Below the pieces are notes generated by a model. It did no database searches, was not told the DNA's origin, and saw only the letters and a program-made list of their open reading frames with translations. From Vulcanimicrobiales bacterium (lineage in GTDB: Bacteria; Vulcanimicrobiota; Vulcanimicrobiia; Vulcanimicrobiales; Vulcanimicrobiaceae): 64,000 nt of DNA. Made by a program: the position numbers and the translations under genes. Each line of letters opens with the position of its first letter. Position 1 is the first letter of the stretch. The stretch lies in the NCBI GenBank assembly GCA_038215615.1, contig JBBQQR010000006.1:1-64000 (forward strand), given 5' to 3'. Positions 21,415 to 29,724 of the stretch are shown here, piece after piece.

Positions 21415-22298
21415 ACGCAATGCGTTCGGCGGCGCACCTGATCGTCGGATCGCGCGACGAGCCGTTCCTAGCGCCGCTGCTTGAATCGATGAGCGGAGCC
21501 GTGGATGCGCTCGTCGTCAACGATAACTCCACCGGCGACTCGCCGCATGAGGAGACACTGCGCGCGAGCTGGTTCGGGCGCACCGGACGGCTCTTCGTCG
21601 ACCGGTCGCCGTTCACGGATTTCTCCGCGGCCCGCAACCGATGTTTGGACCTGCACGCGCAAATCGGCGGTGGTCCGTGGGCCGCTTTCGTGGATGCCGA
21701 CGAAGTGCACGGGGAAGCGTTCGGGCACGTCGCGCGCAATCTGGATGTTGTGCCCCAGAAATACGATTTTTTGGACGGCTACACGTGGCACTTCTTTCAG
21801 TCTTTCGATCTCTACACCTCGATCGAGCGCCGGATGGCTTTTTTCCGCGTGCGGCCGGACGTGCGTTGGGAAGGGCCGGTTCACGAACAGCTGCGTGGAC
21901 TCGATGGCCGCCGGCTGGCGCTGCCGTACGTCTACGCGCACTACGGTCATGTTCTGCCGCCCCGGCGACACGCGGAAAAGGGACGGCAATACGCCGGCCT
22001 CGGGCAGATCGGTGAAGTCGTTCCTGAAGAAAAACTCGACGCGATCGATCCGGCCGTTTATTTCCGCAGCATTTGGCCGATCGTGCTGCGGTTTACGGCG
22101 CAGCATCCGGTCGCTGCTCGAGCAACGATCGCCAGACTCCGGCAGGAGTATGCGCACGAACAGCATCGCGCGATGCAGCTCGCATGGGCGGCGCAGCCGC
22201 CGCTGGTGCGCGCGCGCAACGTCACGCTTAAAATGAATTACGAGCAACGCTGGCGTTCCCGCTTCGCCAACGCGATCGCCCGGCGCCTACTGCGCTAA
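21411..22298 (+). CDS. Glycosyltransferase family 2-like protein
   Basis: DFSAARN, FVDADE (DxD), [13 protein letters not shown]. Confidence 0.75.
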
Positions 22299-23315
22299 GC
22301 CCTGCGCGATCGCTTCGCAGAACGCGTCGACGTCTTCTGGTCGCGTGGCATGGTGCGTCATCCAGCGTACTTCGGGAAGCGCCTCGTTGAAGACGTAAAA
22401 AAAGAAACGCTTTTGAATCCGTTCGATAGCGCTTCGGTCGAGCGTCGCAAAGACGGCATTGCAGCGCACGGGACGCGTGATGCGCACGCCGCTGACACTG
22501 CCCAGGCCAGTTTCCAGTTTCTTGGCCATGGCGTTGGCATGATCGGCGTATCTGCGCCAGCGCTCGTCTTGAAGCAGTGCGGAAAACTGCGCCGCGATGA
22601 ACCGCATTTTCGAAGCAAGTTGCATCCCTTGTTTACGCGCGAACGGCGCGGCGCCGCGGTGCAGGCCGGCGTCGAAAAAAACGACTGCCTCGCCGCCCAT
22701 GAGTCCATTTTTCGTTCCACCGAAACTCAGGACGTCGATCCCGAGGTCGCGCGACGCTTCGCGCAATCCCAACCCGAGCGCCGCGGCCGCATTTGAAATG
22801 CGGGCGCCGTCCATGTGAACGAACCAGCCCTGCGCGTGCGCGAATTCACAAAGCTCGCGCAATTCGGCCGGTTCGTACAGCGTGCCGAACTCCGTCGATT
22901 GCGAGATCGAGATAACTCGCGGCTGAACGTGGTGCTCCTCGCGCGACGGATGCGCGAAAACTTTCAGATGCGCGAGTGTCAATTTTCCGTCGGCGCATTC
23001 AACCGCCAGCAGTTTGCAGCCGGCAAAACGTTCGAAAGCGCCGCATTCGTCAGTTTGCAGATGCGCGGTGGCGGGACAGATAACGGCCTCGTACGGCTGC
23101 GTCAAGCAGCTTAGCGCGACGACGTTGGCCCCGGTGCCGTTGAACGTAAAATAGACGTCGCTCCCGGCTCCGAAGACTTCGCGGAATGCCGCCTTCGCGC
23201 GCTCGGTGTATGGATCGTGTCCATAACCGACGGCGTCGCCGTCGTTCGCTTCGGTAATCGCTTGCAGGATCTCGGCGGCGATCGGCGCGTTGTTGTCGCT
23301 GGCGAAAGTGCGAAT
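22287..23315 (-). CDS. ltaE: Low-specificity L-threonine aldolase (PLP-dependent); apparent ATT start
   Basis: In-frame N-terminus (I)RTFASDNNAP..GYGHD..FNGTGAN; HMDGAR; SFGGTKNG PLP lysine; SKMRF. Confidence 0.88.
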   Translation of the reverse strand: MRTFASDNNAPIAAEILQAITEANDGDAVGYGHDPYTERAKAAFREVFGAGSDVYFTFNGTGANVVALSCLTQPYEAVICPATAHLQTDECGAFERFAGCKLLAVECADGKLTLAHLKVFAHPSREEHHVQPRVISISQSTEFGTLYEPAELRELCEFAHAQGWFVHMDGARISNAAAALGLGLREASRDLGIDVLSFGGTKNGLMGGEAVVFFDAGLHRGAAPFARKQGMQLASKMRFIAAQFSALLQDERWRRYADHANAMAKKLETGLGSVSGVRITRPVRCNAVFATLDRSAIERIQKRFFFYVFNEALPEVRWMTHHATRPEDVDAFCEAIAQGLAQ

Positions 23316-25157: not shown

Positions 25158-26654
25158 CTATTCGGCCGCCATCGCCGCCGCGGCTGCGGCCGCGCGTCGC
25201 GAAGGACGCATGAAGATCACGAGCGGCGCGCAGACGAAGAAGACAATTGCTGAGAGCCTGAACAGGTAATCGTAGGCGTTCACCGCCGACTGCTGCGCGA
25301 CCAGCGCCGTGAGGACCGGTATCGAATAGCCGTGAGCGTTGGTAACGCCCGAGGCGAGCTCGCTCCAGGCAACCGCGCTCTGCCTGGCAAGCAGTGTGGT
25401 GAGTATTGCGATCCCAAAGCTGCCGCCGAGCTGACGAATCAGCGCGGAGACGCCGGTCGCGCCGGCAAGTTCTTCTTTAGGGACCGCTCCGAGCGTCACC
25501 GTTGTCAACGGCACGAACATGAAGCCGAGCGCGAGTCCTTGCCAAACCCGCGGCCAAAAAACGTCCCAGTAGCCGGCGTCTTGCGTCAGGCCTCCCATCC
25601 ACCAGGTGGAGAGGCCGAAAAGCAGCATGCCGAAAATAACCATTGCGCGCGAATCGACAAAGCGCATCAGCGCTCCGACCATTAGCATGCTTATCGCGGT
25701 CGCAATCGCGCCCGGCAGCAGCGCCATTCCCGTTTGGAAGGCCGTGAATCCCAGTATCGTTTGAAAGAAGAGCGGCAAGATTAAACTCGTCCCGAATAAT
25801 CCAAAGCCCAACACGATGCCGACGATGTTGCCGATGGTAAACGTCCGGAATCGAAAGACGCGGATATCCACCAGTGGATACCGGTCGCGCATCGTTTTAT
25901 AGATGAACCACGTCAGCGCGACGATCGCGACGATCGAGAGCAGCCAGATCGCGCCCGAGTCAAACCAATCGTCGTGCTGCCCGCGCTCGAGCACGTATTG
26001 CAGCGACGCGAGCCCCGCCGTTAGTAAGCCCAGACCTATCCAATCTACACCGCCCTTCGGTTTCTCTAAGAAGTGAGGATTCGGAATGAACTTGAGCGTC
26101 ATCAAAAACGCCGCGATCCCGATGGGAATGTTAATGTAGAAGATGAGCGGCCAGGTGTAGTTGTCGATGATGTATCCGCCCAGCGTCGGACCAACCGCCG
26201 GCCCAACCATTGCGCCGAGTCCGAAGATCGCCATCGCCGCGCCGCGTTTTGACGGCGGATACGTCTCGAACAAGATCGCTTGCGCAGTCGGCTGCAGTGC
26301 GCCGCCGCCGAATCCCTGAATCACGCGGTAGAAGACCAGTTGCCAAATGCTGTGGGCGGTTCCGCAGAGCAGCGATGCGATGGTGAAAATCGCCAAGCAG
26401 CCGGCATAGAAGTTCTTGCGTCCCAGGTATGCGGTCAGCCAGCCGTTGAGCGGCATGACGACGACGCTTGCCAAGATGTAACCGGTCGCTACCCATGCAA
26501 CCTCGTCGATGGACGCACCGAGGTTTCCCGCAATGTCGTTCAGCGCCACATTCACGATCGTCGCATCGATGATCGCCATGATCAGACCAAGCATCACGGT
26601 TATCGTAATGAGCGCGACCGGCGCGTTTGCGCGTGCGCGCAACGGGTTAGACAC
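25158..26654 (-). CDS. DHA2 (EmrB/QacA) MFS efflux transporter
   Basis: IDATIVNVAL, WVATGY, RVIQGFGGG, GPTLGG, WPLIFYINIPIG, LERGQHDDWF. Confidence 0.92.
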   Translation of the reverse strand: MSNPLRARANAPVALITITVMLGLIMAIIDATIVNVALNDIAGNLGASIDEVAWVATGYILASVVVMPLNGWLTAYLGRKNFYAGCLAIFTIASLLCGTAHSIWQLVFYRVIQGFGGGALQPTAQAILFETYPPSKRGAAMAIFGLGAMVGPAVGPTLGGYIIDNYTWPLIFYINIPIGIAAFLMTLKFIPNPHFLEKPKGGVDWIGLGLLTAGLASLQYVLERGQHDDWFDSGAIWLLSIVAIVALTWFIYKTMRDRYPLVDIRVFRFRTFTIGNIVGIVLGFGLFGTSLILPLFFQTILGFTAFQTGMALLPGAIATAISMLMVGALMRFVDSRAMVIFGMLLFGLSTWWMGGLTQDAGYWDVFWPRVWQGLALGFMFVPLTTVTLGAVPKEELAGATGVSALIRQLGGSFGIAILTTLLARQSAVAWSELASGVTNAHGYSIPVLTALVAQQSAVNAYDYLFRLSAIVFFVCAPLVIFMRPSRRAAAAAAAMAAE

Positions 26655-26690: not shown

Positions 26691-26879
26691 ATGAAGTTGC
26701 TGCTGGAGATCTTAATTGCGATAATCCTGCACCCGGTTGCATGGATCTTGGTGCTGATCGATCTTGCCGGCCGCGACGACCTGACGACGGCCCAAAAGTT
26801 TATCTGGGGTGTTTTTTCGATCGTCTGGGGCATCGGCCCGATTCTGTACATCCTGGTAGGCGGCGGCAAGCTCTGGTGA
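26691..26879 (+). CDS. Small two-TM membrane protein (PLDc N-terminal-like)
   Basis: 62 aa; two hydrophobic helices, KFIW...IGPILYILVG; TATACT 6 nt upstream of the ATG (leaderless-like). Confidence 0.6.
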   Translation: MKLLLEILIAIILHPVAWILVLIDLAGRDDLTTAQKFIWGVFSIVWGIGPILYILVGGGKLW

Positions 26880-26919
26880 CATAAGGGGCCAAACCGCGGC
26901 CCTTCCGAACTAATTAGGC

Positions 26920-28800
26920 GTGCCGAATTCGATAGTCAGGCGAGGCTTACTCGCCCTCGTGCTGCTGGTCGGAGCTCTCTGCGTTGGGATTGCCTCTGCG
27001 GACACGGACGAGACCACCGCCGGCATCAATCCGGCGACGATTGGCATGCAGCCAATCCGGGGGGCGCTTCCGGCCGCCACGCCGCTTCCCGGCGAATCTC
27101 GGCTCATGCGCCGCGTGGACGGAACCTTTGCGGCTGTTCCGCAATCGAGCGGGCGCACGCGAACTTTTCACCTCGTGGAACGCGATGCGCCGTGGACGCT
27201 CCAGCCCGGACTGACGGTTCTCGCCAAGACCTATAACGGCGTCGTTCCCGGTCCGACCCTAGTCGTTCATCAAGGCGACCGGGTGGTCATCGATTACCGT
27301 AACGAACAGGGCACCCCGGATACGCTGCACCTTCATGGCATTCACGAGATTCCGGTGAGCATGGACGGCGTCGCGGGCATTTCGCAGGCGCTCGTCAGGC
27401 AAGGCGGAGCCTATCGTTACATTTTCACCGCGGATACGCCCGGCACGTTCATCTATCATTCGCATGACAACGAAGAGATGGTCAACAGCGGATTATACGG
27501 CGCGATAGTCGTGTTGCCGTCCCACCCGTCGGCAGCGGAACGATCCGATCGCGATTACGTCGAGGTGCTGTCGTCTTGGGCGATTCAAAGCCTGAGCGAA
27601 AATCATTTCACGATCAACGGAAAAGAGTATCCGTACACGGCTCCCATTGAGGTGCGCAAAGGTCAGCGCGTACGGCTTCGCTGGATCAATATCTCGGGCG
27701 AAAGCATGCACACGATGCATACGCACGGACATTATCAGCGTATCGTAGCGCGCGACGCGCAGCCGGTGACGTACCAGGATATCGAGGATACGGTTTTCTT
27801 GGCACCCGGTCAGCGCGTGGACGTCGTCATCCAAGCGAACCAAATGCCCGGAACGTGGCTGGTGCACTGTCACGTGATCGATCATACCGAGGACGGTTCG
27901 GGAATGCCCGACGGCCTGGTCAGCGCGCTTCATTACCAAGGGACGCCGTATACCGGCGCAGCCATGAACACGGCGATGCGTGCGATGCTTCCCGCGTTCG
28001 GCCGTTCGAAAGGCGGGCTCTCGTTCGGGATGACCGTGCTCCTGGGCGCTGTCGCCGGGCTGACGATCTTTCTTGGATTGCCGGTCGCGCGTATGCGCAA
28101 CGTGTCGCCGTCGGTTATGGCGGCACTGAACGCACTGGCGATCGGGATCCTCGTCTACTTAGTTGTCGAGATCGCCGGAAGCGCGACGGCGCCGCTCGTG
28201 CAGGCGGCGCGATTCTGGCACGGCGGCGGCGCACCGTTGGGAGTGATTTCGCTGGCTCTTGCCTACGTGGGCGGCTTGTTCGCGGGACTGGTCGGATTGG
28301 GTTTCGTGGCCAACAAACTTAGCAGCCGCGCCGCTTCGTCTGTGCATCAGCCGCTCGTGCTGGCCGCGGTCATCGCGGTCGGAATCGGCGCGCACAATTT
28401 TGCCGAAGGGCTGGCCATCGGCGCTTCGGCCGCAAGCGGCGCAACGGCAATTGCGGTCGGGTTGATTATCGGATTCGCCCTGCATAACGCGACCGAGGGC
28501 TTCGGTATTGCCGCTCCGCTTTCGGGGCGCATCATTCCGTCCTGGGGGCAACTCGGCCTAGCGGGCATTGTGGCGGGCGGCCCGACTTTTCTCGGTACGG
28601 TTGTCGGCTATACGTTCCAATCGCCGGTTCTCTCGGTCTTATTTTTAGCGACGGCAATCGGCGCGCTCGTCTTCGTGATCGGCGAAATTTGGGCTGTGCT
28701 GCGGCGGAACTTAGGCATTACTCCGCTGGTGACCTCAATGCTGGCGTGCGGATTCTTGATCGCGTTGACGACGGAGCTAGTCTTGGATTTAAGCGGTTAA
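26920..28800 (+). CDS. Fusion of a two-domain multicopper oxidase and a ZIP-family metal transporter
   Basis: Twin-Arg leader VRRGLL; Cu motifs HLHG, YHSH, HTMHTHGH, HCHVIDH; C-terminal ~8 TM with HNFAEG and HNATEG ZIP motifs; one uninterrupted frame. Confidence 0.88.
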   Translation: MPNSIVRRGLLALVLLVGALCVGIASADTDETTAGINPATIGMQPIRGALPAATPLPGESRLMRRVDGTFAAVPQSSGRTRTFHLVERDAPWTLQPGLTVLAKTYNGVVPGPTLVVHQGDRVVIDYRNEQGTPDTLHLHGIHEIPVSMDGVAGISQALVRQGGAYRYIFTADTPGTFIYHSHDNEEMVNSGLYGAIVVLPSHPSAAERSDRDYVEVLSSWAIQSLSENHFTINGKEYPYTAPIEVRKGQRVRLRWINISGESMHTMHTHGHYQRIVARDAQPVTYQDIEDTVFLAPGQRVDVVIQANQMPGTWLVHCHVIDHTEDGSGMPDGLVSALHYQGTPYTGAAMNTAMRAMLPAFGRSKGGLSFGMTVLLGAVAGLTIFLGLPVARMRNVSPSVMAALNALAIGILVYLVVEIAGSATAPLVQAARFWHGGGAPLGVISLALAYVGGLFAGLVGLGFVANKLSSRAASSVHQPLVLAAVIAVGIGAHNFAEGLAIGASAASGATAIAVGLIIGFALHNATEGFGIAAPLSGRIIPSWGQLGLAGIVAGGPTFLGTVVGYTFQSPVLSVLFLATAIGALVFVIGEIWAVLRRNLGITPLVTSMLACGFLIALTTELVLDLSG

Positions 28801-28803
28801 CCG

Positions 28804-29724
28804 ATGGAAACGGCGCGCGCGCAATTCCCCGACGAACAGAGCGGAGGCGACTTTGCGCGCCAGGACGACGCGTTTCGCGAGTCCATCGTCGGCGAATCCG
28901 GGCGTTATCATCTTTACGTTTCGTGGGCGTGTCCGTGGGCCTCGCGCGCGATCATCGCGCGCAAGCTGAAGGGCCTCGAGGATGCGATCGGCATGAGCGG
29001 CGTCGATCCGATTCGCGACGAGCGCGGCTGGGCGTTTCGGGACGGGCCGGGATACTCGCGTGACCCGATCAACGGCTTTGCATTTTTGAGGGAAGCCTAT
29101 GCAGTCAGCGATCCGCAATACCGGGGACGCGTGACGGTGCCCGCGCTTTGGGACAAGCAGGCCGGACGGATCGTCAACAACTCCGACGACGACATCATGC
29201 GCGCGTTTGAAACCGAGTTCGAAGGCTTTGCGAAGCACGACATCGACCTGTATCCGGCGGAGCACCGCGCCGAGATCGAGGCGCTCAACCAGCTCATTTA
29301 CGAAACCGTCAACAACGGTGTGTACCGAGCCGGTTTTGCGACCTCACAAGGCGCCTACGAAAACGCGGCTTACGGCGTCTTCGAAACGCTCGATCGTTTG
29401 GAGGAACGCCTGGCGCACCGCCGCTACTTGATCGCGGCGCACCCTGTGGAAACGGATTGGAAGCTGTTCGTGACGCTGATCCGCTTTGACGCCGTCTATT
29501 TCGGGCATTTCAAATGCAACGTGCGCCGCATCGTCGACTACCCGAATCTGTGGGGCTACGTACGCGACCTCTACCAAATCGACGGCATCGCCGAAATGGT
29601 CAACTTCGATCACATCAAGCGCCACTATTATATGACGCACGGAGAGATCAACCCGACGCGGATCGTTCCGGTCGGGCCAACCCTGGATCTTCTGACGCCG
29701 CACGGCCGCGAAAGACTATCTTAG
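28804..29724 (+). CDS. Glutathionyl-hydroquinone reductase (YqjG/ECM4-type GST)
   Basis: GRYHLYVSWACPWA, TVPALWD, IVNN, NNGVYRAGFA, RFDAVYFGHFKCN, HIKRHYY. Confidence 0.9.
   Translation: METARAQFPDEQSGGDFARQDDAFRESIVGESGRYHLYVSWACPWASRAIIARKLKGLEDAIGMSGVDPIRDERGWAFRDGPGYSRDPINGFAFLREAYAVSDPQYRGRVTVPALWDKQAGRIVNNSDDDIMRAFETEFEGFAKHDIDLYPAEHRAEIEALNQLIYETVNNGVYRAGFATSQGAYENAAYGVFETLDRLEERLAHRRYLIAAHPVETDWKLFVTLIRFDAVYFGHFKCNVRRIVDYPNLWGYVRDLYQIDGIAEMVNFDHIKRHYYMTHGEINPTRIVPVGPTLDLLTPHGRERLS

Follow-up and report, generated by a model that had tools for sequence, protein, structure and literature searches.

We describe a gene in a stretch of 64,000 nucleotides from a Vulcanimicrobiales bacterium (contig JBBQQR010000006.1 of assembly GCA_038215615.1, positions 1 to 64,000; hereafter, the window). 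The gene occupies positions 26920 to 28800 on the forward strand and encodes, in one chain, a two-domain multicopper oxidase followed by a permease of the ZIP family. Judging from an operator-like motif at its start, it is likely repressed by a DtxR-family protein and switched on by iron shortage, and iron uptake is quite probably its purpose when the three iron readings discussed below are taken together. In the reading that we favor, to which we assign a probability of roughly 0.4, the oxidase oxidizes Fe(II) and hands the ion over to the ZIP domain, making the protein an iron-regulated single-chain importer. A preliminary description of the gene, made from the sequence alone, had proposed a single-chain oxidase-permease metal system and had left the metal open, with copper named first. 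The single-chain system is borne out by Pfam domains, a structural model, and the conservation of the fusion; as for the metal, the regulatory evidence points to iron instead of copper.

An oxidase and a ZIP permease in one conserved reading frame

The frame is open from a GTG start to a TAA stop and specifies the 626 amino acids claimed for it, and the motifs quoted in the preliminary description lie where it placed them (H137 at 27328, Y179 at 27454, H264 at 27709, H316 at 27865, H492 at 28393, and H522 at 28483). A Pfam scan assigned residues 99 to 201 to Cu-oxidase_3, residues 225 to 329 to Cu-oxidase_2/Cu-oxidase, and residues 472 to 584 to Zip. The Zip match (PF02535) scored 33.6 bits (E 3e-8), slightly below the 35.1 cut-off, and close relatives scored 35 to 43 bits. 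An AlphaFold2 monomer model built from 73 aligned sequences (mean predicted local distance difference test score [pLDDT], 81.8) contains two beta-sandwich (cupredoxin) domains, a helix at residues 346 to 356, and eight long helices at residues 369 to 625, in agreement with the ZIP domain of about eight transmembrane helices that had been proposed. By hydropathy, seven of the eight ZIP helices exceeded the threshold.

Among the 120 best homologues (of 991), all contained the oxidase domains and 115 had a precomputed Zip match. We also searched 401 genomes of the phylum, 317 of which gave some match, and found that 149 of the 150 best genome matches listed spanned both halves; a stop was present in four of the best listed matches, which still had an open frame of at least 622 amino acids. 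Five of the 150 listed rows belong to genomes marked unpublished; some genomes so marked also enter the second-order comparison and the strict and loose motif-pattern tallies given below, and nothing else reported here depends on them. In a second order and in divergent genera, the fusion was kept at 45 to 51% identity. An assembled contig of run X1 spans the oxidase-ZIP junction without a difference and may derive from the source sample. Because homologues and genome matches span both halves, an assembly artifact or a read-through of two genes was ruled out, and, as far as sequence comparison can tell, the fusion is conserved across the class Vulcanimicrobiia (Eremiobacterota). Our literature searches, which left most subscription papers and all supplements outside their reach, found no study of the fusion, in line with the earlier statement that no characterized protein of this kind was known. 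The ESM Atlas returned nothing beyond the protein's own cluster.

The first cupredoxin domain (approximately residues 78 to 201; positions 27151 to 27522, forward strand) carries the cluster ligands H137, H139, H180, and H182 and lacks a type-1 site, while the second (approximately residues 209 to 341; positions 27544 to 27942, forward strand) carries the type-1 ligands H264, C317, and H322 and the cluster ligands H267, H269, H316, and H318. All 120 homologues have the three type-1 ligands, and each of the eight trinuclear-cluster histidines is found in 118 to 120 of them. At the type-1 His and Cys positions of domain 1 stand Asp134 and Ser/Thr181 (D134 and S181 in the protein studied here). 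The type-1 Cys is thus restricted to domain 2, as had been noted, and, going by its predicted ligands, the oxidase half is a type-B two-domain multicopper oxidase as PMC13151041 defines the class. At the register of the axial Met, Pro (Pro330) occurs in 120/120 forward fusions and Met in 77/80 fusions of the reverse order described below; Met329 adjoins Pro330 in 95 of the 120, and the loop at residues 321 to 330 was modeled with low confidence. Leu333 was considered as the axial ligand and dropped, since the M-x-G-L register puts that position at Pro330.

Domain 2 also contains the conserved acids E227, E261, and D321. An acid lies two to three residues ahead of the type-1 His in every forward (120/120) and reverse (80/80) fusion, and an Asp precedes the other type-1 His in 119/120 and 80/80, respectively; Fet3 has an acidic pocket near its type-1 site (PMC11817551). 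M148 and M266 are conserved as well. Two stand-alone relatives of the oxidase with one membrane segment (P0359 and P0362) have lost copper ligands, and the fusions retain the type-1 set. Two-domain oxidases are trimers with the copper cluster at the interface, and the type-1 sites of a type-B enzyme face a central tunnel and Fe(II) is oxidized in vitro, according to PMC13151041. By analogy, the fusion may form a trimer, and the combination of a trimeric oxidase with a ZIP domain, flagged as unusual in the preliminary description, is a genuine symmetry puzzle.

The linker between the halves (positions 27943 to 28020, forward strand) holds the Met-bearing helix at residues 346 to 356. The Met-rich linker described earlier stands for the forward order, in which M349 and M353 are present in 120/120 sequences, but it is limited to that order, as 43 of 64 reverse-fusion linkers contain zero or one Met.

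Residues 1 to 27 (positions 26920 to 27000, forward strand) form a predicted signal peptide that ends in A-S-A. The letters VRRGLL, previously read as a twin-arginine leader, are indeed present, but the consensus for twin-arginine translocation (Tat) is S/T-R-R-x-F-L-K, and the homologues do not follow it: RR is present in 18 of the 81 leaders that could be read, none of the 120 homologues has RRxFL, and relatives have RL, RQ, RF, RH, RY, RI, RC, or WL at the same position. Moreover, the RR codons fall within the second operator copy (positions 26936 to 26949) described below. These findings ruled out Tat export. An AxA-type end is found in 80 of the 81 leaders. We infer a signal of the Sec type, which removes one of the two mechanistic puzzles raised earlier. 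The claim that the oxidase sits outside the membrane is supported as a prediction. In the 80 reverse fusions, the oxidase is C-terminal and follows the last ZIP helix.

The ZIP domain itself, with its eight helices, is encoded at positions 28021 to 28797 (forward strand). Its metal site consists of H492, N493, and E496 together with H522, N523, and E526, and further conserved acids lie at E417, E589, and E619. A profile of this ZIP subfamily matched BbZIP (E 5e-10), with the binuclear metal motifs of transmembrane helices 4 and 5 (TM4 and TM5) aligned, and these motifs are common to the fusion, BbZIP, and ZupT. The fusion differs from BbZIP and ZupT in that its motifs, HNF[AG]EG and HN[AT]TEG, lack Pro, in having T556 where BbZIP has the TM6 Glu, and in its additional acids at 417 and 619; it belongs to a distant subfamily, with a score of 27 bits against a ZupT cut-off of 252. 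Position 417 is mostly Glu in fused sequences and Asp in 35 of 38 unfused ones, a difference that may reflect kinship alone. Hosts of the unfused members include Chloroflexota and Actinomycetota.

An operator-like motif at the start of the gene

The GTG start codon is overlapped by a palindrome, TTAGGC-GT-GCCGAA (TTAGGCGTGCCGAA), at positions 26914 to 26927. Two CCTAA-type repeats separated by a 4-bp spacer give it the form of a single-dimer DtxR/IdeR site (PMC10317159). The palindrome lies at the same place in relatives and is the top site of its own genome (27.5, versus 19.2 for the next). A second, degenerate copy 22 bp downstream (positions 26936 to 26949), whose bases encode the residues V-R-R-G-L, recurs as well: over 68 loci, a copy with at most four mismatches was found 40 times at an offset of 22 bp, and the next commonest offset was found 7 times. 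A stricter version of the motif pattern matched 19 of 41 genomes, mostly at one site each, against 3 for the reversed control; with a looser pattern, the control was noisier. Scans of the region near the gene for riboswitches or other RNAs and for sigma-70 promoters returned none.

A DtxR-family gene was present in 40/40 genomes tested. In a related order, dtxR directly precedes the fusion gene, and the motif lies upstream of this dtxR-fusion operon. The operon repressor has Met10 and Cys102, and ligands of this type favor Fe(II) (PMC10317159). The conserved CCTAA-N4 palindrome at the gene start, together with a repressor gene in the genome, marks the fusion as a putative member of a DtxR/IdeR/MntR-type regulon. 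We also noted that the operon DtxR proteins of the related order (L078:5226-5936, L079, and L080) have Gln in place of His79 and lack His98, so that the ancillary metal site looks lost; a second DtxR is present in each of these genomes.

Two other places where the motif occurs are recorded here as side observations. In the fusion's own genome, a weaker site lies over the start of a gene for a 168-amino-acid protein (G000 C8:65989-66492); in two further genomes (L248 and L249), the fusion and a look-alike of this gene diverge. An exact motif also lies just ahead of an operon that by eye resembles one for riboflavin synthesis (L376:2359, G143) and may be there by chance.

Genes behind the motif and exchange with Nramp

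For 23 genomes that lack the fusion and 25 that bear it, we noted which genes follow the exact motif listed first, and we did the same at further second sites. Without the fusion, the motif was followed by Nramp at 11 loci, a cytochrome-porin at 9, FTR1 at 1, a three-domain oxidase at 1, and no gene at 1. With the fusion, it was followed by the fusion itself at 13 loci, the dtxR-fusion operon at 2, a cytochrome-porin at 6, Nramp at 1, and another or no gene at 3. A single genome of 80, G125, yielded FeoB, and the same one alone yielded FTR1; in it, the motif stands ahead of both, and feoAB follows a near-exact tandem site. The fusion's own genome (100% complete) gave no FeoB or FTR1 match. Since the same motif precedes known iron importers in relatives, the fusion is likely an iron route. 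Automatic names make it a zinc importer, which is unlikely: the genome has a separate Fur-family gene beside znuABC, and the motif is not tied to these genes.

Within the family, a motif-led Nramp gene was found in 36 of 38 genomes that lack the fusion but in 9 of 32 that have it, and in the related order it was found in 0 of 7; the genomes of a third family (3/3) gave weaker Nramp matches only. In three genomes, the fusion is divergent from what by eye is a sigma-factor gene. Nramp is divergent from that same gene in 4 of 10 fetched regions and at most three genes away in 5 more. Nramp and the fusion are largely complementary and sometimes occupy the same genomic slot. The motif also extends to unfused members of the ZIP subfamily, being present at 26 of 118 loci, compared with 0 to 1 in shuffles, and 8 of the 26 are within two mismatches of the 19-bp IdeR consensus. 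A DtxR-family gene lies within 5 kb at 19 of 77 non-fused ZIP loci, one of which is cut by a contig end.

The motif-led Nramp (L183:216-1493) has DTEAG in helix 1 and M-P-W in helix 6, which we take to set it apart from canonical MntH. Another Nramp-family gene of the fusion's own genome (G000 C19:15872-18451) is not under the motif, lies directly behind an MgtE-like gene, and is presumably a magnesium transporter.

The cytochrome-porins behind the motif (L182:1525-2658, L215, L217, L218, L377, L379, and L382) have a heme motif close to that of Cyc2 (10.1101/228056), mostly with His replacing Arg. A YceI gene frequently comes after the cytochrome-porin gene, and some genomes then have a gene for a three-domain oxidase. 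Repression by iron would be out of the ordinary for a Cyc2-like protein, which might then act in uptake and not in respiration. In the ESM Atlas, the cytochrome-porin fell in unnamed clusters only. Three distant paralogues in the fusion's own genome (C5:5353-7458, C3:43179-47466, and C22:23698-27000) lack the operator motif; their operon partners are cupredoxin and SCO-like, multicopper oxidase, or cytochrome-oxidase-like genes.

Reverse-order and other fusions of the ZIP subfamily

A plasmid of Deinococcus sp. KNUC1210 carries the two halves in reverse order, ZIP and then oxidase, in a copper/zinc/cadmium island. A search with this protein yielded 80 reverse fusions among the 120 matches listed, with hosts that include Kyrpidia, Aneurinibacillus, Alicyclobacillus, Actinoallomurus, Methylacidithermus, and Proteobacteria. 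A search of the family to which an Actinoallomurus genome belongs, run without a positive control, found reverse fusions in 0 of 151. When the regions upstream of three reverse fusions were scored against the Fur consensus, one matched at 17/19 positions (0 of 1,000 shuffles were as good), one at 13/19 (14 of 1,000), and that of Deinococcus not at all. Because Fur-family boxes resemble one another, the Fur box of the reverse fusions is suggestive. Forward and reverse fusions fell apart in the trees, separated by starred branches in a quick ZIP tree, but an approximately unbiased (AU) test kept one clade (P = 0.20); an independent origin of the two orders was set aside, as a single ZIP clade was not rejected.

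Among 30 scanned of the 150 profile matches listed, the same ZIP subfamily was also fused to cytochrome c (P0466), to cupredoxin-like domains (P0490 and P0494), and to cupredoxin plus oxidase (P0361). P0469 is a further member of this set of redox-domain fusions.

Weighing the possible functions

Under the reading that we favor, iron shortage would relieve the DtxR-family repressor, and the fusion would be expressed. At the outer mouth, Fe(II) would give up an electron to the oxidase and then move as the oxidized ion to the ZIP domain, as yeast Fet3 serves Ftr1, and three ZIP domains tethered under a type-B trimer would place an oxidizing tunnel above the pores. We prefer a hand-over because electron-accepting domains recur on this ZIP subfamily and because acids are found at the type-1 site.

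Several observations weigh against a hand-over. Transport-site residues do not differ among the sequences compared (15 forward fusions, 15 reverse fusions, 5 redox-domain fusions, and 38 unfused ZIPs), and an oxidase neighbor was found at 0 of 77 non-fused ZIP loci, so the pore functions without such a partner. Nramp, with which the fusion is exchanged, is a divalent carrier. Two genomes (L049 and L050) encode the oxidase with one C-terminal membrane anchor, lacking both the ZIP domain and the operator motif. The Deinococcus copy has neither a DtxR-type motif nor a Fur box, and a stand-alone oxidase locus (L295), which lies in a copper/heavy-metal context, has neither motif. The repressor of the fusion's own genome (G000 C3:81193-81855), and of the family as a whole, is a hybrid with Glu at position 10 and Cys at position 102 (Cys102 in 25/25 loci where the position was readable, among 30 loci), and the own genome also holds a second Fur-family gene of unassigned type. 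The 80 genomes compared above were hand-picked and are kin, not independent, so we attach no P value to the distribution of Nramp and the fusion. Finally, in the description of PMC11817551, ZIPs transport ferrous (divalent) ions and ferric permeases are rare.

The explanation that we rank second, and consider rather unlikely, is that Fe(II), with some Mn(II), enters through the ZIP domain in unchanged form under iron control, while the oxidase guards a promiscuous pore, opened in starvation, by oxidizing Cu(I) or surplus Fe(II) around it. It is ranked there because the transport residues equal those of unfused ZIPs, so that the pore has stayed the same, and because the exchange partner, Nramp, is a divalent carrier. 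A guarding oxidase would also suit the invariant M349 and M353, the conserved M148 and M266, the plasmid copper-resistance contexts of related oxidases, and the presence, in genomes that use Nramp, of an operon behind the motif that encodes a cytochrome-porin, YceI, and a three-domain oxidase. However, the Met-rich linker is mostly missing from the reverse fusions, and the fusions to a single cytochrome c or cupredoxin domain fit electron capture at the pore better than detoxification, as such a domain cannot itself reduce O2. Cu(II) made by the oxidase would, in addition, be a likely ZIP substrate.

The three remaining readings, namely import of manganese with a filter for iron, uptake of copper, and oxidation of ligands, are less likely. 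For manganese, the repressor would sense Mn and the oxidase would make Fe(III), which the ZIP domain would reject while Mn(II) passed. The replacement of Nramp, the tandem sites 22 bp apart (a spacing known from Mn-type repressors), and the second Fur-family gene, which could handle iron, are consistent with this, as is the likeness of the hybrid Glu/Cys repressor of the fusion's own genome to the MntR of P. gingivalis, a protein that binds both Mn and Fe and has a Mn transporter gene in its operon (PMC4805248). We nevertheless hold it to be improbable: the motif precedes FTR1 and feoAB, other phyla show Fur and IdeR boxes, and, as 79 of the 80 genomes gave neither FeoB nor FTR1, a Mn-only function would leave no ionic iron importer among those searched. 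Slightly more doubtful still is copper import, in which the oxidase would make Cu(II) from Cu(I) for the ZIP domain to carry, as proposed for archaeal MCO1/ZIP. The Met-rich helix and the Deinococcus copper-island context speak for it, and in Nitrososphaera viennensis MCO1 and the neighboring permease rose modestly under copper limitation (log2 0.81 and 1.33; PMC7785015). Against it stand the DtxR-type motif common to iron importers, the cost of answering a copper shortage with a copper enzyme, and the archaeal model itself, which in its authors' words is untested (PMC7785015). Least probable is that the oxidase attacks catechol or humic ligands and the freed iron enters the ZIP domain as Fe(II). 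Type-B two-domain oxidases do act on phenolics, oxidizing them (PMC13151041), and a glutathione S-transferase-family gene follows the fusion in close relatives, but that neighbor is confined to those relatives (5/20 loci), and the acids conserved close to the type-1 ligands point to a cationic substrate.

Oxidation of Fe(II) with hand-over to the ZIP domain can be extended to a wider claim, which we put forward as doubtful: that the ZIP subfamily has repeatedly been recruited for oxidation-coupled iron uptake and that here it carries Fe(III) from the central tunnel of the trimeric oxidase, as the main ionic iron route of much of the class. If true, this would be the first ZIP to move a trivalent ion and a counterpart of Fet3-Ftr1 assembled from unrelated parts. 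ZIPs are taken to be divalent carriers that need no redox partner, and the fusion of this subfamily to a copper oxidase in both orders, and elsewhere to cytochrome c or cupredoxins, suggests that oxidase-linked iron permeases have a second family. Such a family would explain the ionic iron supply of the Vulcanimicrobiia, nearly all of which lack FeoB and FTR1 in our sample, and it would assign a physiological task to one branch of the two-domain oxidases, about whose roles little is known. Among named, cultured bacteria, Kyrpidia, Aneurinibacillus soli, Alicyclobacillus, and Deinococcus sp. KNUC1210 carry the reverse fusion, which puts the question within reach of experiment, and the archaeal idea of MCO1 working with a ZIP becomes testable in a single gene.

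Neighboring genes

A glutathione S-transferase-family gene (GST_N_2 and GST_C_2; positions 28804 to 29724, forward strand) starts 3 bp past the fusion stop and is likely cotranscribed with the fusion here. A look-alike was found one or two genes downstream in 5 of 20 loci, all from close relatives, and for this lack of conservation the gene was rejected as a part of the system. Just upstream of the fusion lies an open reading frame for a hydrophobic protein of 62 amino acids (positions 26691 to 26879, forward strand), whose copy in a relative gave a weak PLDc_N match below the cut-off. Two genes farther upstream keep that place in close relatives only: judged by eye, they encode a DHA2-family efflux transporter (positions 25158 to 26654, reverse strand) and a threonine-aldolase-like protein (positions 22287 to 23105, reverse strand). 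In G384, a ferritin-family, bacterioferritin-like gene (L208:8843-9322) runs divergently from the fusion; no motif lies between the two genes, and this pair was set aside.

Comparison with known systems

The closest solved relatives of the oxidase half, by sequence and by fold, are 2ZWN and 3G5W (E 1e-45 and 7e-42, respectively). In these two, HCH falls in domain 1 and HDH in domain 2, which is the reverse of the copper pattern in the fusion; the fusion's pattern matches that of the type-B enzymes CjMCO (PMC13151041) and SLAC. All four are soluble and have no transporter, whereas the fusion carries a ZIP domain.

Yeast Fet3p-Ftr1p likewise ties an outer multicopper oxidase, with acids near its type-1 copper, to a permease (PMC11817551), and the iron control that we propose for the fusion would extend the likeness. 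The yeast system consists of two proteins, a monomeric three-domain oxidase and an FTR1 permease, while the fusion is one chain with a two-domain oxidase, expected to be trimeric, and a ZIP permease. As its permease is a ZIP and not a member of the FTR1 family, the fusion may work like a Fet3/Ftr1-type (OFeT) system but is not one. In bacteria, FtrABCD and EfeUOB use Fe(II) by way of an iron permease that has a periplasmic cupredoxin or oxidase as its partner, as proposed here; in FtrABCD, a cupredoxin partners an Ftr1-like permease (PMC11966278). Both differ from the fusion in having an FTR1-type permease and separate subunits, and FtrB is without an O2-reducing copper cluster. In ammonia-oxidizing archaea, the gene for the two-domain oxidase MCO1 adjoins that of a ZIP permease, and oxidation before uptake has also been proposed (PMC7785015). 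There, the genes are separate and the metal proposed is copper. Within the literature searched, this archaeal gene pair is the nearest precedent of the fusion.

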